Shown here: one piece after another, positions 13,020 through 20,668 of the stretch
Layout: each line of letters begins with the position of its first letter
How positions within the stretch are numbered: the stretch's first letter is position 1
Assembly (NCBI RefSeq): GCF_030013205.1
Contig: NZ_CP122648.1
From: Escherichia coli
GTDB taxonomy: Bacteria > Pseudomonadota > Gammaproteobacteria > Enterobacterales > Enterobacteriaceae
Direction: 5' to 3' (one strand)
DNA length: 64,000 bases
Made by a program: the position numbers and the translations under genes
Notes under the pieces: model-generated
What the model was told of the DNA's origin: nothing
What the model saw: only the letters and a program-made list of their open reading frames with translations
The model's database searches: none

Positions 13020-14267
13020 ATGGCACTGAATATTCCATTCAGAAATGCGTACTATCGTTTTGCATCCAGTTACTCATTTCTCTTTTTTATTTCCTGGTCG
13101 CTGTGGTGGTCGTTATACGCTATTTGGCTGAAAGGACATCTAGGATTAACAGGGACGGAATTAGGTACACTTTATTCGGTCAACCAGTTTACCAGCATTC
13201 TATTTATGATGTTCTACGGCATCGTTCAGGATAAACTCGGTCTGAAGAAACCGCTCATCTGGTGTATGAGTTTCATTCTGGTCTTGACCGGACCGTTTAT
13301 GATTTACGTTTATGAACCGTTACTGCAAAGCAATTTTTCTGTAGGTCTAATTCTGGGGGCGCTCTTTTTTGGCCTGGGGTATCTGGCGGGATGCGGTTTG
13401 CTTGACAGCTTCACCGAAAAAATGGCGCGAAATTTTCATTTCGAATATGGAACAGCGCGCGCCTGGGGATCTTTTGGCTATGCTATTGGCGCGTTCTTTG
13501 CCGGTATATTTTTTAGTATCAGTCCCCATATCAACTTCTGGTTGGTCTCGCTATTTGGCGCTGTATTTATGATGATCAACATGCGTTTTAAAGATAAGGA
13601 TCACCAGTGCATAGCGGCGGATGCGGGAGGGGTAAAAAAAGAGGATTTTATCGCAGTTTTCAAGGATCGAAACTTCTGGGTTTTTGTCATATTTATTGTG
13701 GGGACGTGGTCTTTCTATAACATTTTTGATCAACAACTCTTTCCTGTCTTTTATGCAGGTTTATTCGAATCACACGATGTAGGAACGCGCCTGTATGGTT
13801 ATCTCAACTCATTCCAGGTGGTACTCGAAGCGCTGTGCATGGCGATTATTCCTTTCTTTGTGAATCGGGTAGGGCCAAAAAATGCATTACTTATCGGTGT
13901 TGTGATTATGGCGTTGCGTATCCTTTCCTGCGCGTTGTTCGTTAACCCCTGGATTATTTCATTAGTGAAGCTGTTACATGCCATTGAGGTTCCACTTTGT
14001 GTCATATCCGTCTTCAAATACAGCGTGGCAAACTTTGATAAGCGCCTGTCGTCGACGATCTTTCTGATTGGTTTTCAAATTGCCAGTTCGCTTGGGATTG
14101 TGCTGCTTTCAACGCCGACTGGGATACTCTTTGACCACGCAGGCTACCAGACAGTTTTCTTCGCAATTTCGGGTATTGTCTGCCTGATGTTGCTATTTGG
14201 CATTTTCTTCCTGAGTAAAAAACGCGAGCAAATAGTTATGGAAACGCCTGTACCTTCAGCAATATAG
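13020..14267 (+). CDS. cscB: Sucrose:H+ symporter CscB (MFS, LacY-like)
   Basis: 415-aa 12-TM ORF MALNIPFRNAYYRFASSYSFLFFISWSLWWSLYAIW..., oligosaccharide:H+ symporter family. Confidence 0.9.
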   Translation: MALNIPFRNAYYRFASSYSFLFFISWSLWWSLYAIWLKGHLGLTGTELGTLYSVNQFTSILFMMFYGIVQDKLGLKKPLIWCMSFILVLTGPFMIYVYEPLLQSNFSVGLILGALFFGLGYLAGCGLLDSFTEKMARNFHFEYGTARAWGSFGYAIGAFFAGIFFSISPHINFWLVSLFGAVFMMINMRFKDKDHQCIAADAGGVKKEDFIAVFKDRNFWVFVIFIVGTWSFYNIFDQQLFPVFYAGLFESHDVGTRLYGYLNSFQVVLEALCMAIIPFFVNRVGPKNALLIGVVIMALRILSCALFVNPWIISLVKLLHAIEVPLCVISVFKYSVANFDKRLSSTIFLIGFQIASSLGIVLLSTPTGILFDHAGYQTVFFAISGIVCLMLLFGIFFLSKKREQIVMETPVPSAI

Positions 14268-14708
14268 ACGTAAACTTTTTCCGGTTGTTGTCGATATTTC
14301 CATATCCCTCAACCGGAAAATAATAATACAAAAATGCTTAGCCCAACTAATAATCACCTAATCCAAACGCCTCATTCATGTTCTGGTACAGTCGCTCAAA
14401 TGTACTCCGGATACGCGGTTCGCTGATTTCCAGGACATTGTCGTCATTCAGCGACCTGTCCCGAGTATCACGGGCCTGCGAATTCATCAAGGAATGCATT
14501 GCAGAGTGAAGTATCGAGTCACGCCATATTTCGCTATCAGGATTCTGTATGATGGTTACATCGCCCGGCCCAGGGCTGTTTAGTCATCAGCGCTTTCTGA
14601 CAGTGCTGAGATTTCAACCTGTTGCAGTAAAAATGAGTAGATATAGGGCAAGTGTGCTGCCAAACCCATCTTTTACGGGGTGAAGGTAGATATTGTTAGA
14701 AGGGTATC

Positions 14709-14723
14709 TGGTGTCCCCTGCAG
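14709..14723. repeat. argW-derived att core fragment (matches the 3'-terminal 15 nt of argW)
   Basis: TGGTGTCCCCTGCAG is identical to the first 15 nt of the argW gene as read on the + strand at 40640-40654. Confidence 0.7.
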
Positions 14724-14796
14724 ACATCTACTTGAAGCGGCAGGGGATTGATTGGAATGGTGTTTTTTAGGTGTGAGAAATATTTTACCCGCTATT

Positions 14797-14997
14797 TTAC
14801 CCATTGGCGCGGCTTAAGAGCTTATTTTTGAATTCACAATGGTCACGATATAACCATCTTGCTCGCCCGTGGATAACTTTGGCTTTTGGCAGGTCGCCGG
14901 ACTTAATCCGGTCGTAGATGAAGGTTTTACCAAAGCCAGTATCAGCCATGATGAATTTCAAATCAACCAGGGAATCAGGCTGTAGTTCGTGTTGCAT
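14797..14997 (-). CDS. Excisionase / AlpA-family small HTH DNA-binding protein
   Basis: 66-aa ORF ...FIMADTGFGKTFIYDRIKSGDLPKAKVIHGRARWLYRD... fits the Xis/AlpA HTH pattern; sits between two att-core fragments. Confidence 0.6.
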   Translation of the reverse strand: MQHELQPDSLVDLKFIMADTGFGKTFIYDRIKSGDLPKAKVIHGRARWLYRDHCEFKNKLLSRANG

Positions 14998-15016
14998 GAG
15001 TGCTATCTCCGAATAG

Positions 15017-15032
15017 GGAATCGAACCTGCAA
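15017..15032. repeat. Second argW-derived fragment (matches the next 16 nt of the tRNA 3' region)
   Basis: GGAATCGAACCTGCAA is identical to argW 40654-40669; together with 14709-14723 it covers 30 nt of the tRNA 3' end, but the two halves are separated by 293 bp. Confidence 0.6.
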
Positions 15033-15107
15033 ATCAGGCAAGAAAAAACCGCCATCAGGCGGTTTGGTGTTCTTTCAGTTCTTCAATTCGAATATTGGTT
15101 ACGTCTG

Positions 15108-15327
15108 CATGCGCTATCTGCGCCCATATCATCCAGTGGTTATAGCAGTCGTTGATGTCCTCTGCTTCGATAAGGAGAAGAAATTCCCAATTACTCAAGA
15201 GCTATACGAGCGACTGGAAAGCGTCATCCATGATTACGATGGTGAAATCAGTTTATGCGAGGCGATTGGCACACTTGAATTGCTGAAGCAGTCATTGATT
15301 GAAGGCGCGAAAGAGTCCTTAGCCTGA
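15108..15327 (+). CDS. Hypothetical small phage protein upstream of the terS remnant
   Basis: Open frame ending ...ITQELYERLESVIHDYDGEISLCEAIGTLELLKQSLIEGAKESLA; start chosen at the first ATG, uncertain. Confidence 0.3.
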
Positions 15328-15344
15328 AATAACAACTAAGTGAG

Positions 15345-15555
15345 ATGAATATGGCAGCACCAAAGGGCAACCGATTTTGGGAGGCCCGCAGTAGTCATGG
15401 GCGAAATCCTAAATTCGAATCGCCTGAGGCGCTGTGGGCTGCTTGTTGTGAATACTTCGAGTGGGTAGAAGCTAACCCGCTATGGGAGATGAAGGCATTC
15501 TCGTATCAGGGTGAAGTGATACAAGAGCCTATCGCCAAGATGCGAGCGATGACCA
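15345..15555 (+). pseudogene. Small terminase subunit (P22 gp3-like), N-terminal about 70 codons only
   Basis: [71 protein letters not shown] matches the P22 gp3 N-terminus as I recall it; the rest of the 157-aa ORF is out-of-context read-through overlapping the next gene. Confidence 0.7.
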
Positions 15556-15657
15556 TTATCCAAACCGTATGCCTGTTGGTAGCGGTAATCAGTTGGCGAA
15601 GTGGAACGGTTGGAGTTACTTCCAGCGAAAGGAACCTTGCGATAACGGGAGCGAATA

Positions 15658-17076
15658 ATGCCGATTCAGCAACTTCCGCTCATGAAAGGTGTCGGAAAAG
15701 ACTTCCGAAACGCCGACTATATCGACTATCTGCCAGTGAATATGTTGGCTACACCCAAAGAAATCCTGAACAGCAGCGGATATCTTCGCTCATTCCCGGG
15801 CATTGCCAAACGTTCTGATGTGAACGGCGTATCGCGCGGAGTTGAGTACAACATGGCGCAGAGTGCTGTTTATCGCGTGTGTGGCGGCAAGCTGTACAAA
15901 GGAGAAAGTGAGGTCGGTGACGTCGCAGGAAGTGGTCGCGTATCAATGGCGCATGGTCGGACATCACAGGCGGTAGGCGTTAATGGTCAACTGGTCGAGT
16001 ATCGTTATGATGGCGCGGTCAAAACCGTCTCAAACTGGCCTACAGACAGCGGATTCACGCAGTATGAGTTAGGTTCTGTTCGTGACATTACGCGCTTACG
16101 TGGGCGTTATGCGTGGTCAAAAGACGGAACTGATTCATGGTTTATCACTGACCTTGAAGACGAATCGCATCCTGACCGTTACAGCGCACAATATCGTGCC
16201 GAGTCGCAGCCTGACGGCATCATCGGCATCGGAACATGGCGAGACTTCATCGTCTGCTTTGGTTCATCGACGATTGAATATTTCTCCCTGACTGGTGCAA
16301 CCACCGTTGGTGCCGCTTTGTATGTTGCACAGCCATCACTGATGGTGCAGAAAGGTATTGCTGGGACTTACTGCAAAACGCCATTCGCTGATTCTTATGC
16401 GTTCATCAGCAATCCGGCAACAGGTGCGCCGTCTGTATACATCATCGGCTCCGGTCAGGTGTCACCAATCGCCAGCGCGAGCATTGAGAAAATCCTCCGC
16501 TCCTACACTGCTGATGAACTGGCTGATGGCGTGATGGAATCGCTGCGGTTTGATGCGCATGAGTTGCTGATTATCCATCTTCCGCGCCATGTCCTCGTGT
16601 ACGACGCATCTTCAAGCGCCAATGGTCCGCAATGGTGTGTGCTGAAAACAGGCCTGTATGACCATGTGTACCGCGCTATTGACTTCATTTACGAAGGCAA
16701 TCAGATAACGTGCGGCGATAAGCTGGAGTCTGTTACCGGGAAATTGCAGTTCGATATATCTTCACAATACGAAAAACAACAAGAGCATATTTTATATTCC
16801 CCTCTAATAAAGGCAGATAACGCTTTAATAAATGACCTTGAATTAGAAACATCTGGCGGCGTGTGTGATAGAATAGATAAAATATTTATATCAGCCACTA
16901 CAGATGGAATTAGTTACGGTCGTGAGCAAATGGTCGTATTACAAAAACCATTTGTATATGAAAATCGCGTTTTATGGCGAAAGGTTGGTCGAGTTAGACG
17001 CCTCATTGGATTTAAATTCAGAGTTATTGCAAAAGGTCCTGTCACATTATCAGGCCTTTCTATTCGTGTAACATAA
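15658..17076 (+). CDS. P22 gp10-like packaged-DNA stabilization / head completion protein
   Basis: 472-aa [52 protein letters not shown]..., same length and near-identical N-terminal region as P22 gp10 from memory. Confidence 0.85.
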
Positions 17077-17097
17077 ATCGAAACTCAAGGAGTAGAT

Positions 17098-17631
17098 ATG
17101 TTAAGTGAAAACGCAAAAGATATCGAAGGATATGAAGGACTGTACGCCATCACTAATGATGGTAGAGTTTACTCGCATTCAAGAGTAAATTTGAGGGGAC
17201 GTCTTATTAAGGGTAGGTGGCTGAAGCATAATCATAACGTAAATGGATATAAGTATGTGTGTTTATATAAGGATGGCGTAAAAAAGAACATACTAATACA
17301 TAAGCTTGTTGCATCTCACTTTGTTGGTGGATTTGCTGAAGGGTTACAGGTAAATCATATAGATGGTGATAAATATAATAATAACTATCTAAATCTTGAA
17401 TGGGTTACTCCATCAGGAAACATCTCACACTCATATGGATTGGAGTCGAGAGGTAATGTAAAAGGAGAAAGGAATGGTAATTCTAAAATATCTAATGATG
17501 ATGTCATAAAGATAAAAGAAATGGTTGCCAATGGATTTCCTCAGTGTGAAGTTGCTAAATTATTTGGAATTCACAATTCAAAGGTTAGTAGAATTGTAAA
17601 TGGCAAGGCATGGAGGCATGTTAATGGCTGA
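17098..17631 (+). CDS. HNH homing endonuclease (HNH + AP2/NUMOD-like DNA-binding region)
   Basis: 177-aa ORF with [17 protein letters not shown] and HKLVASHFV...[11 protein letters not shown] (HNH) motifs; free-standing between gp10 and the tail needle gene. Confidence 0.8.
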
Positions 17632-18055
17632 TTCGAATCTCAACACCCCTGTTATTGTGCAGGCTACGCGGCTCGATACATCAATACTTCCACGCAATAT
17701 CTTCTCGCAGTCGTATCTGCTTTACGTTATCGCACAGGGCACTGATGTTGGTAACGTGGCTAACAAGGCCAACGAGGCCGGACAGGGCGCTTATGATGCA
17801 CAGGTCAGGAACGATGAGCAGGATGTGATTCTGGTCGATCATGAAGAAAGAATTCGTCAGCTCCGCATTGAAGTAGATGACCATGAAATCCGTATTGCTG
17901 CGAATACTGCGGCAATTGCAGCGCTGGATGTCAGACTAACCACGGCTGAAGGAGAAATAGTCACCTTACAGGCTGACGTCAGCGCTCTTGATGGCCGGGT
18001 TCCCGAGAAATACAAAGAGCAGAATTACAAGAAAAGGCTCTGGACAGACAGATAG
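17624..18055 (+). CDS. Tail needle protein (P22 gp26-like), N-terminal domain conserved, short divergent C-terminus
   Basis: [43 protein letters not shown]...[48 protein letters not shown] matches the gp26 N-terminal coiled coil; only 143 aa versus about 233 in P22. Confidence 0.7.
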
Positions 18056-18582
18056 CCAGAGAAAGCAATCAGTTAAAGCTCGAAGAGCTAAAACAGAAAC
18101 AGGCAGATGTTCGGCAAAAGGCTGACATAGCCCGCGCTGACAGGCAGGCCGCCGCTCAGGGTGCGGTTGATACGTTCAGCACCGCGCTTGATTCTCTCAA
18201 CGAGACAGAGCAAAGCCCCGGCCTTTCAAAAGCAGTAGGAATTCGCTCAGCGTTTCCGACAGTTCCTGGCTCTGATGCGGCTAACTTTGAAGCAAGACTC
18301 GACACCTTTAAAGCTCAAACTTTCCTCCCTATGGTGCAGTCCCTGAAGGGGATGGGGGCTCTTTCAGATGCTGAGGGTAAAAAATTATCTGATGCGGTTG
18401 GTGCTCTAAGTCCCAAAATGAGTGAAAAGGCTTTTCGTGACTCTATCGGAAAGATTCGAAATCAGCTTGAAAGCAAGTTGAGCACTGTTAAAAAACAGTT
18501 TGATTATCAGGAGCCAGTACAGAATACGCCAGGGCAACAATCTACTACTGGCAGTAACTTTTCTTCACTATGGGGTGATTAA
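17986..18582 (+). pseudogene. Start-less coiled-coil ORF fragment (possible 3' part of a tail needle or ejection gene after a deletion or frameshift)
   Basis: Frame open from 17986 with no ATG until 18331; encodes ...LKLEELKQKQADVRQKADIARADRQAAAQGAVDTFSTALDSL...; stop overlaps the start of the next gene (ATGA at 18579-18582). Confidence 0.3.
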
Positions 18583-20579
18583 TGGCTAAAGCATGGAAAG
18601 ATGTTATCGCCTCTCCACAGTATCAGGCGTTAGCACCAGAACAAAAAGCGCAGGCTCAGGAGCAATACTTCAATGAAGTCGTTGCCCCGCAAGCCGGAGA
18701 AAATGCAGAGCAGGCTAAGCAAGCTTTCTATGCTGCCTATCCATTGCCATATGTGCAGCAAGTGGAGACACAGCAACCAGTAGCACAGCAACAACCACAG
18801 CAAAGTGGATTTATGTCTGATCTTGGCGAAGCAGTAAAAGAGACTGGTCGCGGACTGGTGCAGGCTGGCGTGAACGTGGCAAACATACCTGCATCAGTTG
18901 CCGATGCTGTAACAAGCGCGGCGGCTTGGGCTGGCGGTAAACTCGGCATTGGCGATGGTACATATCAACCAGCGCCACGTGTAACAACGCAGGGATTAGA
19001 GCAGGACTTTGGCCTTCAGCAAGGCGCGCTGACTCCACAAACGACAGAGGGAAGGGTATTTGCTGAAGCATTGCCTTACCTCACTCCTGCTGGCGTTGAG
19101 AGAGCGGCAGCACAGGCACCAACACTTGCTGGTCGAATTGCTCATGGGGCAACTCGCCTTCTAGCAGAAAACGCAGTTGGATCACTTGCTGCAAATAGTG
19201 CGAAAGATGATGCGGAAGCACTCGCCACCGATTTGGGCGTTGGTGTGCTGGCTGGCGGTGCTATTAACGCTGCCGGACGTGGATTAGGTGCTGCTTATCG
19301 TGGAGTTCGTGGTGCTATTGCGCCAGAAGCGCAGCAAGCTATCAGATTTGCAGAGCGTGAAGGAGTGCCTCTGCACACCACAGACATGTTACAGCCTACT
19401 TCCCGCGTCGGAAAAATGGCGCAAACGACAGCAGAAAATATCCCCCTGGCGGGCACAAGCGGAATGAGAGCAACGCAACAGGAAGCGAGAAGCCAGTTGG
19501 TTCAGAGATTTGCTGATAAATTCGGTGAGTATGATCCAGCGGTTGTTATTGACAGCCTTAAAGCGAAAACATCAGGAATTCGTCGCGCTGCAGGAAATCG
19601 ACTGGAGCAGGTTCAGAATGCTATGGCGGGAATAAACATTCAGCCTGCAAGAGCAATTCAGCAGATTGATACAGAAATATCTAACCTGCAGAAGCTTGGT
19701 AAGGTTGCTGATAACGAGACTATTTCAAAACTTCAGTCCTATCGTGATGAGCTTGTTCGCAATGCTGGTCCTGATGGTCCGGTAAATCTGGATTTGAAGC
19801 AATTAAGCGATCTGCGCAGCCAGTTCAGAATGGACGTGAAGGGTGAGCGACCAGTGTTACCAAACCGTTCCGATGCTGCAATTCAGCGCGTTTACAAGGC
19901 AATGACCGACGATATCAATGGTGCCATTGGTCAGAATCTTGGCAACGATACTCTCCGTAAATATCAGCAGGCCAATGCCGTCTACGCTGACGAAGCCGCG
20001 AAACTAAAGAATACCAGGCTGAAGAATGTTCTCATGAAAGGCGATCTGACGCCGGAAGTTGTCAACAACATGCTATTCAGCAAGAACAAATCGGAAATTA
20101 AGACGCTGTATAACTCAGTTGGTCGTGTTGGCAGGGCGCAAATGCGCAATGGCATCATTGGAAAGGCGATGGAGAAATCTGGCGGATCCCCTGACCAGTT
20201 CCTTCGGCAGCTTAACATCCTGCAAAACCAGACTGGCATCACATTTAAGGGGCAGGACGCTGCTTATCTGAAAGGATTAAAAAACTACCTGCAATCTACG
20301 CAGCAGGCTGCAAAAGCGGCAGTAACAACACCCACAGGGCAGCAAACTATCCCGTTCATTATTGGGTATGGGACGGCAATGAACCCTGCGACAACTGGCG
20401 CAGCAGTAAGCTACGGACTTCTTACTCGCGCCTATGAGAGCGAGCCATTCAGAAATGCAATGCTCAGAATGGCAAACACCCCACGCGGATCAACAGCGTT
20501 TGAGAAAGCCATGCAGCAGGCACAAAAGGCAATTAACGCTCTGACGCAGGGGGCTAAGTCTGATGCGTTGTCAGAATAG
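18582..20579 (+). CDS. Putative phage DNA-transfer (ejection/injection) protein
   Basis: 665-aa Ala/Gln/Gly-rich protein in the position of the P22 ejection-protein genes (after the tail needle, before mnt); assignment is positional and compositional. Confidence 0.5.
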   Translation: MAKAWKDVIASPQYQALAPEQKAQAQEQYFNEVVAPQAGENAEQAKQAFYAAYPLPYVQQVETQQPVAQQQPQQSGFMSDLGEAVKETGRGLVQAGVNVANIPASVADAVTSAAAWAGGKLGIGDGTYQPAPRVTTQGLEQDFGLQQGALTPQTTEGRVFAEALPYLTPAGVERAAAQAPTLAGRIAHGATRLLAENAVGSLAANSAKDDAEALATDLGVGVLAGGAINAAGRGLGAAYRGVRGAIAPEAQQAIRFAEREGVPLHTTDMLQPTSRVGKMAQTTAENIPLAGTSGMRATQQEARSQLVQRFADKFGEYDPAVVIDSLKAKTSGIRRAAGNRLEQVQNAMAGINIQPARAIQQIDTEISNLQKLGKVADNETISKLQSYRDELVRNAGPDGPVNLDLKQLSDLRSQFRMDVKGERPVLPNRSDAAIQRVYKAMTDDINGAIGQNLGNDTLRKYQQANAVYADEAAKLKNTRLKNVLMKGDLTPEVVNNMLFSKNKSEIKTLYNSVGRVGRAQMRNGIIGKAMEKSGGSPDQFLRQLNILQNQTGITFKGQDAAYLKGLKNYLQSTQQAAKAAVTTPTGQQTIPFIIGYGTAMNPATTGAAVSYGLLTRAYESEPFRNAMLRMANTPRGSTAFEKAMQQAQKAINALTQGAKSDALSE

Positions 20580-20668
20580 CTTTTCAAACACCAGGAACGT
20601 GCAAAAACCAAATATGTAGAATGCAATATTCATCATATCTCTGTGCATAAATCCTCCGTAACGGATGG

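Follow-up and report, generated by a model that had tools for sequence, protein, structure and literature searches.

In the 64,000-nt stretch of Escherichia coli DNA analysed here (contig NZ_CP122648.1, hereafter the window), the sucrose permease gene cscB and a copy of the 3' end of argW, a tRNA gene, are separated by a spacer of 441 bp, and it is this spacer that carries the remnant of a DUF4942 gene described in this work (Table 1). The locus is a part of the well-known argW-dsd/csc variable region, a hotspot of phage integration (PMC11251922, PMC3032704, PMC3509656). The 15-mer shared by argW and the spacer boundary agrees with the 16-nt core of KplE1, CTGCAGGGGACACCAT (PMC2951348), and represents the att core. 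Between argW and the remnant lies a prophage composed of a KplE1-type intS/torI module and P22-like remnants, to which the integrase encoded at 39199-40503 also belongs. Both copies of the core are accounted for by this prophage, and the window contains no third one.

Table 1. Features of the region between cscB and argW, in coordinates of the window
Feature	Position	Strand	Description and basis
cscB, sucrose permease	13020-14267	plus	ORF, annotation
Interval from the cscB stop to the secure 3' end of the pseudogene	14268-14363	minus	Last codons of the open frame and its stop; hairpin at ~14277-14320
Open remnant frame, DUF4942	14347-14583	minus	78 codons (14350-14583) and TAA (14347-14349); translation, ORF list
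Out-of-frame upstream continuation of the pseudogene	14593-14658	minus	Parent nt 97-161, codons ~33-54; contains stops; 74% identity
50-nt spacer from the att core to the pseudogene	14659-14708	minus	No significant DUF4942 match
att core copy, last 15 nt of argW	14709-14723	minus	attR of the resident ~26-kb prophage; exact 15-mer shared with 40640-40654
torI, excisionase of the KplE1-type recombination module	14797-14997	minus	First prophage gene beside attR; ORF, annotation, K-12 comparison
argW, tRNA-Arg(CCU), integration target	40640-40714	minus	ARAGORN

According to the K-12 annotation of pawZ and CPS-53, the core copy adjacent to the spacer corresponds to pawZ at attR of E. coli K-12. The homology to K-12 runs through torI and ends exactly at the core, beyond which K-12 has ~95 bp followed by dsdC and the window the remnant-bearing spacer of 441 bp followed by cscB. 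In two strains with no element at argW (L004 and L012) the order is cscB, 441 bp, argW, and in such prophage-free strains the remnant is found 50 nt from the 3' end of argW, i.e. directly 3' of the tRNA gene at the att core. In the window it is located outside attR, and not between the two copies of the core.

The prophage side of the junction shows several features of its own. An exact 16-mer, GGAATCGAACCTGCAA, identical to a part of the argW T-arm (40654-40669), is present just upstream of the torI start (15017-15032) and also upstream of torI in K-12 (locus L003, 12276-12291); it appears to be a conserved component of the KplE1-type recombination module rather than a second att of this strain, and it may be what the original prediction had counted as a second att copy. 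A segment of the plus strand that overlaps the 5' end of torI (14947-15074) gives a sub-threshold Rfam match to the sRNA STnc130 (30.6 bits compared to the gathering score of 55, E=0.019), and this segment encloses a hairpin (15046-15065; 8-bp stem) that resembles a terminator. Judging from how RefSeq annotates the K_EC180 locus, which is near-identical, the region 15000-20600 is a truncated P22-like mosaic (partial small terminase, partial gp4, gp10, a NUMOD4 protein, a partial tail protein and a partial acyltransferase), which indicates that the resident prophage is itself defective.

The open frame and its existing annotation

The original prediction described the fragment as the C-terminal part of a gene, devoid of a start codon and located outside the csc block. 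The peptide it quoted is reproduced exactly, together with its stop, by the translation of the minus strand, and the position between the cscB stop and the argW-derived core copy indeed places the fragment outside the csc block. However, the open frame is longer than had been noted, as it extends upstream as far as two consecutive stops at 14584-14589, and it does contain a start codon: an ATG at 14499 opens a 50-codon ORF (14347-14499) within it. No Shine-Dalgarno sequence was found before this ATG, and an Rfam scan of 14200-14800 matched no RNA family.

The fragment is already known in the sense that it is annotated in RefSeq, where PGAP lists the 50-codon ORF as a "DUF4942 domain-containing protein" (WP_001316510.1). 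The segment 14268-14800 of the window occurs with 100% identity in several chromosomes of swine E. coli, in which the RefSeq order is the MFS transporter gene (cscB), the WP_001316510.1 CDS and torI. The region is the same argW-dsdCXA/csc variable locus for which PMC11251922 and PMC3032704 cite Jahreis et al. 2002 and Moritz & Welch 2006; the published accounts that we consulted deal with the alternation of csc and dsd and with phage integration at this site and make no mention of the fragment.

An internal piece of a DUF4942 gene

Translated searches for the parent gene revealed a homologue from the DUF4942 family. The open frame matches the Pfam profile PF13708 with a score of 38.3 bits (gathering cut-off 25, E=1.5e-9), and the match spans positions 5-62 of 190, which is less than one third of the domain. 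As the reference parent we used an intact homologue from E. coli (locus L009, 9001-9843; 280 aa), in which the domain occupies residues 87-275. In a tblastn search the open frame aligned with residues 76-151 of this protein with 49% amino acid identity (E=4e-19), and a second, collinear HSP covered residues 38-70 in another frame upstream, with stops inside. At the DNA level, positions 14658-14364 of the window align with nt 97-445 of the parent with 74% identity over 292 positions; the securely homologous part of the open frame is 14364-14564, which is 73% identical to parent nt 244-445. The lesions within the aligned pseudogene comprise a net deletion of ~55 nt mid-way and a 1-nt frameshift. 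The alignment score of the main block was 84.5 compared to a maximum of 19 among shuffled sequences, and that of the upstream block 28.5 compared to a mean of 11.0 and a maximum of 17.5; in each case none of the 500 shuffles scored as high. Open stretches of 50-80 codons abound in this region whichever of the six frames is read, and a chance ORF without any real parent might therefore be envisaged, but the Pfam, tblastn and DNA scores listed above refute this explanation, to which we assign a practically negligible probability.

The retained sequence corresponds to codons ~33-150 of the 280 in the parent, while the first ~32 and the last ~130 are gone. Thus, the relic does not comprise a complete domain of ~190 positions within a protein of ~280 aa with its own start and stop, and what had been regarded as a C-terminal fragment is in fact an internal piece. 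Since the last ~130 residues of the parent are missing, the TAA that terminates the relic frame is not the native stop codon.

On the cscB side, a 17-nt segment (14283-14299) shows a collinear 15/17 match to parent nt 522-538, which was marginal in a semi-global test (28 of 1000 shuffles reach its score); judging from this match, the decayed DUF4942 sequence may continue into the interval 14268-14363, down to ~14283. A hairpin predicted directly after the cscB stop (~14277-14320) has an 11-bp stem, UUUUUCCGGUUG...CAACCGGAAAA, a free energy of -17.3 kcal/mol and a z-score of -3.2; it is not followed by a U tract on either strand, and its distal arm overlaps the 15/17 match.

No canonical terminator or promoter signal stood out in the spacer. 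On the argW side, when aligned from the core without gaps, the 50-nt spacer matches the attL arm of a genomic island found at argW in the E. coli genome L26 (see below) at 25 of 50 positions (31 of 57), i.e. 50-54%, for a length of 50-57 nt that was picked after seeing the data, compared to 28% for the attR/dsdC flank of K-12. This similarity is a hint that suggests that the spacer could be an arm of an old element, similar to attL.

The search for a closer parent was fruitless. An exhaustive search of 1.84 billion cluster representatives yielded intact or longer relatives with at most ~53% amino acid identity, the matches from a word-based protein search were all further alleles of the relic (50-85 aa), with no intact parent among them, and a degenerate pattern for the relic motif FERLYQNMNE had no matches in 100,044 species-representative genomes. 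With no intact gene closer than ~53% and no hit to the motif, the parent lineage cannot be traced. Sequence searches of NCBIfam, PADLOC and PDB gave no function for the parent family.

Decay across alleles

The alignment of eight relic sequences from different lineages (seven distinct alleles) shows a pattern of variation that differs from that of the neighbouring gene. In the relic frame 26 of the 237 sites (11%) are variable, distributed among the first, second and third codon positions as 6:10:10, as opposed to 39 of 1248 sites (3.1%) in cscB, where the distribution is 8:1:30. The relic is thus more variable than even the third positions of cscB (30/416, 7%), and the density of variable sites in the flanking non-coding DNA is 12.7% and 13.6%. 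Two of the alleles carry disrupting lesions. In the empty-site strain L004 an in-frame CGG is changed to TGA, the same change is present in PSS-07, and the allele with this stop is that of the three similar genomes looked at, namely L004, PSS-07 and the empty-site type; the L012 allele has a 1-nt deletion at 14569. Moreover, in the band of 95.5% identity many genomes have no annotated CDS at the relic. Neither purifying selection nor a frame that remains intact across the alleles was found, and we conclude that the relic is non-functional and evolves neutrally, with no coding constraint.

These data also bear on the possibility that the 50-codon ORF is a surviving part of the DUF4942 domain that still makes a functional small protein. 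It would be consistent with the presence of the RefSeq CDS WP_001316510.1 in many genomes and with the retention of the segment in nearly all csc-positive genomes. On the other hand, the ORF covers less than one third of the domain and has no ribosome-binding site before its ATG, it shows no third-position bias and is as variable as the flanking non-coding DNA, and it is interrupted by the in-frame TGA in one allele, frameshifted in another, and left without a CDS in many genomes. We therefore regard a functional small protein as very improbable.

DUF4942 genes in CP4-44/SRL-type islands and the use of argW

Full-length DUF4942 genes are found in 8295 copies in 4009 genomes. In locus L009 the gene is the last in the series Ag43, DUF932, antirestriction, RadC, YeeT, CbeA(YeeU), CbtA, DUF5983, DUF957, DUF4942, and the SRL pathogenicity island has the same backbone order, orf49-orf56 (PMC6980539). 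DUF4942 is therefore the normal last gene of the CP4-44/SRL-type island backbone, and it is these distal-end genes of the CP4-44, CP4-57 and SRL-PAI-type islands of E. coli and Shigella (SRL PAI orf56, related to L0010) that the relic resembles, with 49% amino acid and 74% nucleotide identity. Such islands use a tyrosine integrase to insert at tRNA gene 3' ends. Like the intact island genes, the relic adjoins a tRNA gene that is used by islands and reads away from it, which is the orientation of DUF4942 in the CP4-44/SRL-type islands. Unlike them, it is confined to the internal codons, bears the frameshift, the stops and the ~55-nt deletion, and is accompanied by neither a backbone nor an integrase. 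Specifically, of the antirestriction-RadC-YeeT-YeeU-CbtA-DUF5983-DUF957 backbone nothing is found in 14268-14708, where the DUF4942 piece stands by itself; there is no tyrosine integrase of its own between the core and the relic, and the relic does not lie between direct repeats (attL and attR) of the tRNA 3' end. Its divergence also far exceeds that of the 8295 other copies in E. coli, all of which are at least 80% identical to one another (megablast).

Islands of this type do insert at argW, and their YeeU/DUF4942 end is then the one away from the tRNA gene. In the genomes PSS-07 and L26 the order is argW, integrase, ~50 kb of cargo, Ag43, DUF932, antirestriction, RadC, YeeT, YeeU, and beyond YeeU in PSS-07 follow the attR core, the 50-nt spacer, the relic and cscB; in L26, IS903B has removed the attR of the island together with 22 bp of the spacer. 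Because the relic lies outside the attR of the modern island, it predates that island. The island encodes a tyrosine integrase of 396 aa, in which the domains Arm-DNA-bind_3, Phage_int_M and Phage_integrase were recognised, and 266 complete genomes carry this integrase.

The islands of PSS-07 (loci L016/L017) and L26 (L014/L015) carry, among their cargo, a TerB-N/ATPase/DEAD-helicase cluster, an HsdR-N protein, autotransporters and Ag43; both end right after YeeU and have no CbtA toxin or DUF4942 gene. Two other csc-positive strains, O157:H7 ECP19-198 (L010) and WCHEC005784 (L011), have, in place of torI and ~160 bp past the att core, a gene whose product is a serine "recombinase family protein" of 208 aa, which indicates a third kind of element at argW. 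Finally, in the ETEC strain L7_E1373 (L006) the relic is replaced by ISEc46, of the IS200/IS605 type (tnpA and TnpB), so that of the sequence following cscB only the initial 77 nt are left, and beside argW there is the N-terminus of a truncated integrase.

Two other sequences may be compared with the relic. The K-12 pseudogene pawZ, a copy of the argW 3' end at attR of KplE1/CPS-53, is likewise a scar at the same site, and its equivalent in the window is the core copy next to the spacer. However, pawZ is the duplicated att core of a resident prophage, while the relic is situated outside attR, derives from another type of element and is missing in K-12. In Salmonella, the SPI-3 island next to selC contains a DUF4942 homologue upstream of rhuM (serovar Infantis SARB27, locus L002, 7710-8594) that is 40% identical to the relic. 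Similarly to the relic, it resides in an island linked to a tRNA gene, and it is annotated as short hypothetical ORFs; the tRNA site and the species are different. It is probably a comparable decayed copy.

Origin of the relic

The original prediction proposed that the fragment may be a relic of an earlier element at this site. The parent family, the use of argW by islands of the appropriate type, the orientation of the relic and its neutral decay all agree with this proposal; its co-occurrence with cscB, on the other hand, would also fit an arrival of the two together. The relic is an ordinary pseudogene scar at the argW tRNA insertion hotspot, a decayed, functionless internal piece of a DUF4942 gene, and we consider it likely that a CP4-44/SRL-type island at argW was its source.

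We propose the following scenario, in which both the integration of the relic's own element at argW and the order of events are inferred. A CP4-44/SRL-type island would have inserted at argW, with its DUF4942 gene reading away from the tRNA gene. A deletion would then have taken everything from just past the attL arm to codon ~33 of the DUF4942 gene, and a second event would have removed the 3' part of the gene together with whatever was located beyond it, leaving the relic ~100 nt from cscB. Throughout, argW would have remained intact, and it would later have accepted the prophage seen in the window, the CP4-type island of PSS-07 and L26, and the serine-recombinase element of O157:H7. We also considered whether the deletion had been caused by microhomology linking the argW core to the parent's 5' region, an idea to which the actual DNA of the parent gave no support.

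The association with cscB deserves separate consideration. The 441-bp spacer with the relic is present in 2644 of the 5426 complete E. coli genomes, with 93-100% identity, the 3' end of cscB is present in 2645, and the relic adjoins cscB in every context examined. The truncation points of the relic are identical across all alleles, and because this holds for 2644 genomes, all csc-positive E. coli share one ancestral junction, of which these points are a marker. The relic is thus a fixed component of the csc-bearing haplotype, between cscB and argW. Such a pattern would also be expected if the relic had never belonged to an element resident at argW in E. coli, and had instead been a passenger on an imported csc segment, which either took the place of dsdC and of the 5' part of dsdX through recombination or is what remains of an island that delivered csc. 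The almost exact co-occurrence with cscB and the two truncation points common to all alleles speak for this explanation, as does the fact that the csc haplotype and the dsd haplotype of K-12 differ from the first base after the argW core; furthermore, csc is scarcely found outside E. coli, and it is considered to have been gained by horizontal transfer at a hotspot of recombination (PMC11251922). However, the haplotype's left boundary falls at the tRNA gene's 3' end and the adjacent 50 nt resemble an attL arm, which favours site-specific integration at argW over recombination at an arbitrary position. Neither an att copy nor an island gene is found beyond cscR, and the FERLYQNMNE pattern is absent from the 100,044 species-representative genomes. 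We therefore find it unlikely that the relic was simply a passenger; and if integration at argW is favoured, this explanation largely merges with the scenario of an argW-integrated CP4-44/SRL-type island, with the island as the vehicle of csc.

It is tempting to take this one step further and to consider the relic and the attL-like arm of 50 nt as the last trace of a CP4-44/SRL-type vehicle that brought the csc regulon to argW. The mobility genes of such a vehicle would have been deleted later, and the loss of its far end would have taken dsdC and the 5' part of dsdX with it. We regard this extension as doubtful at present.

Implications

As a neutral pseudogene scar, the relic is of small biological importance, and a flag of a pseudogene fragment would suit the 50-aa RefSeq CDS better than its present description as a "DUF4942 domain-containing protein". 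Its only use is that of a marker, which would record one or more past occupations of argW by a CP4-type island, earlier than the elements found there at present. If, however, the relic is what remains of the vehicle of the csc regulon, it would provide a concrete mechanism for the long-known mutually exclusive polymorphism of csc and dsd at this locus.
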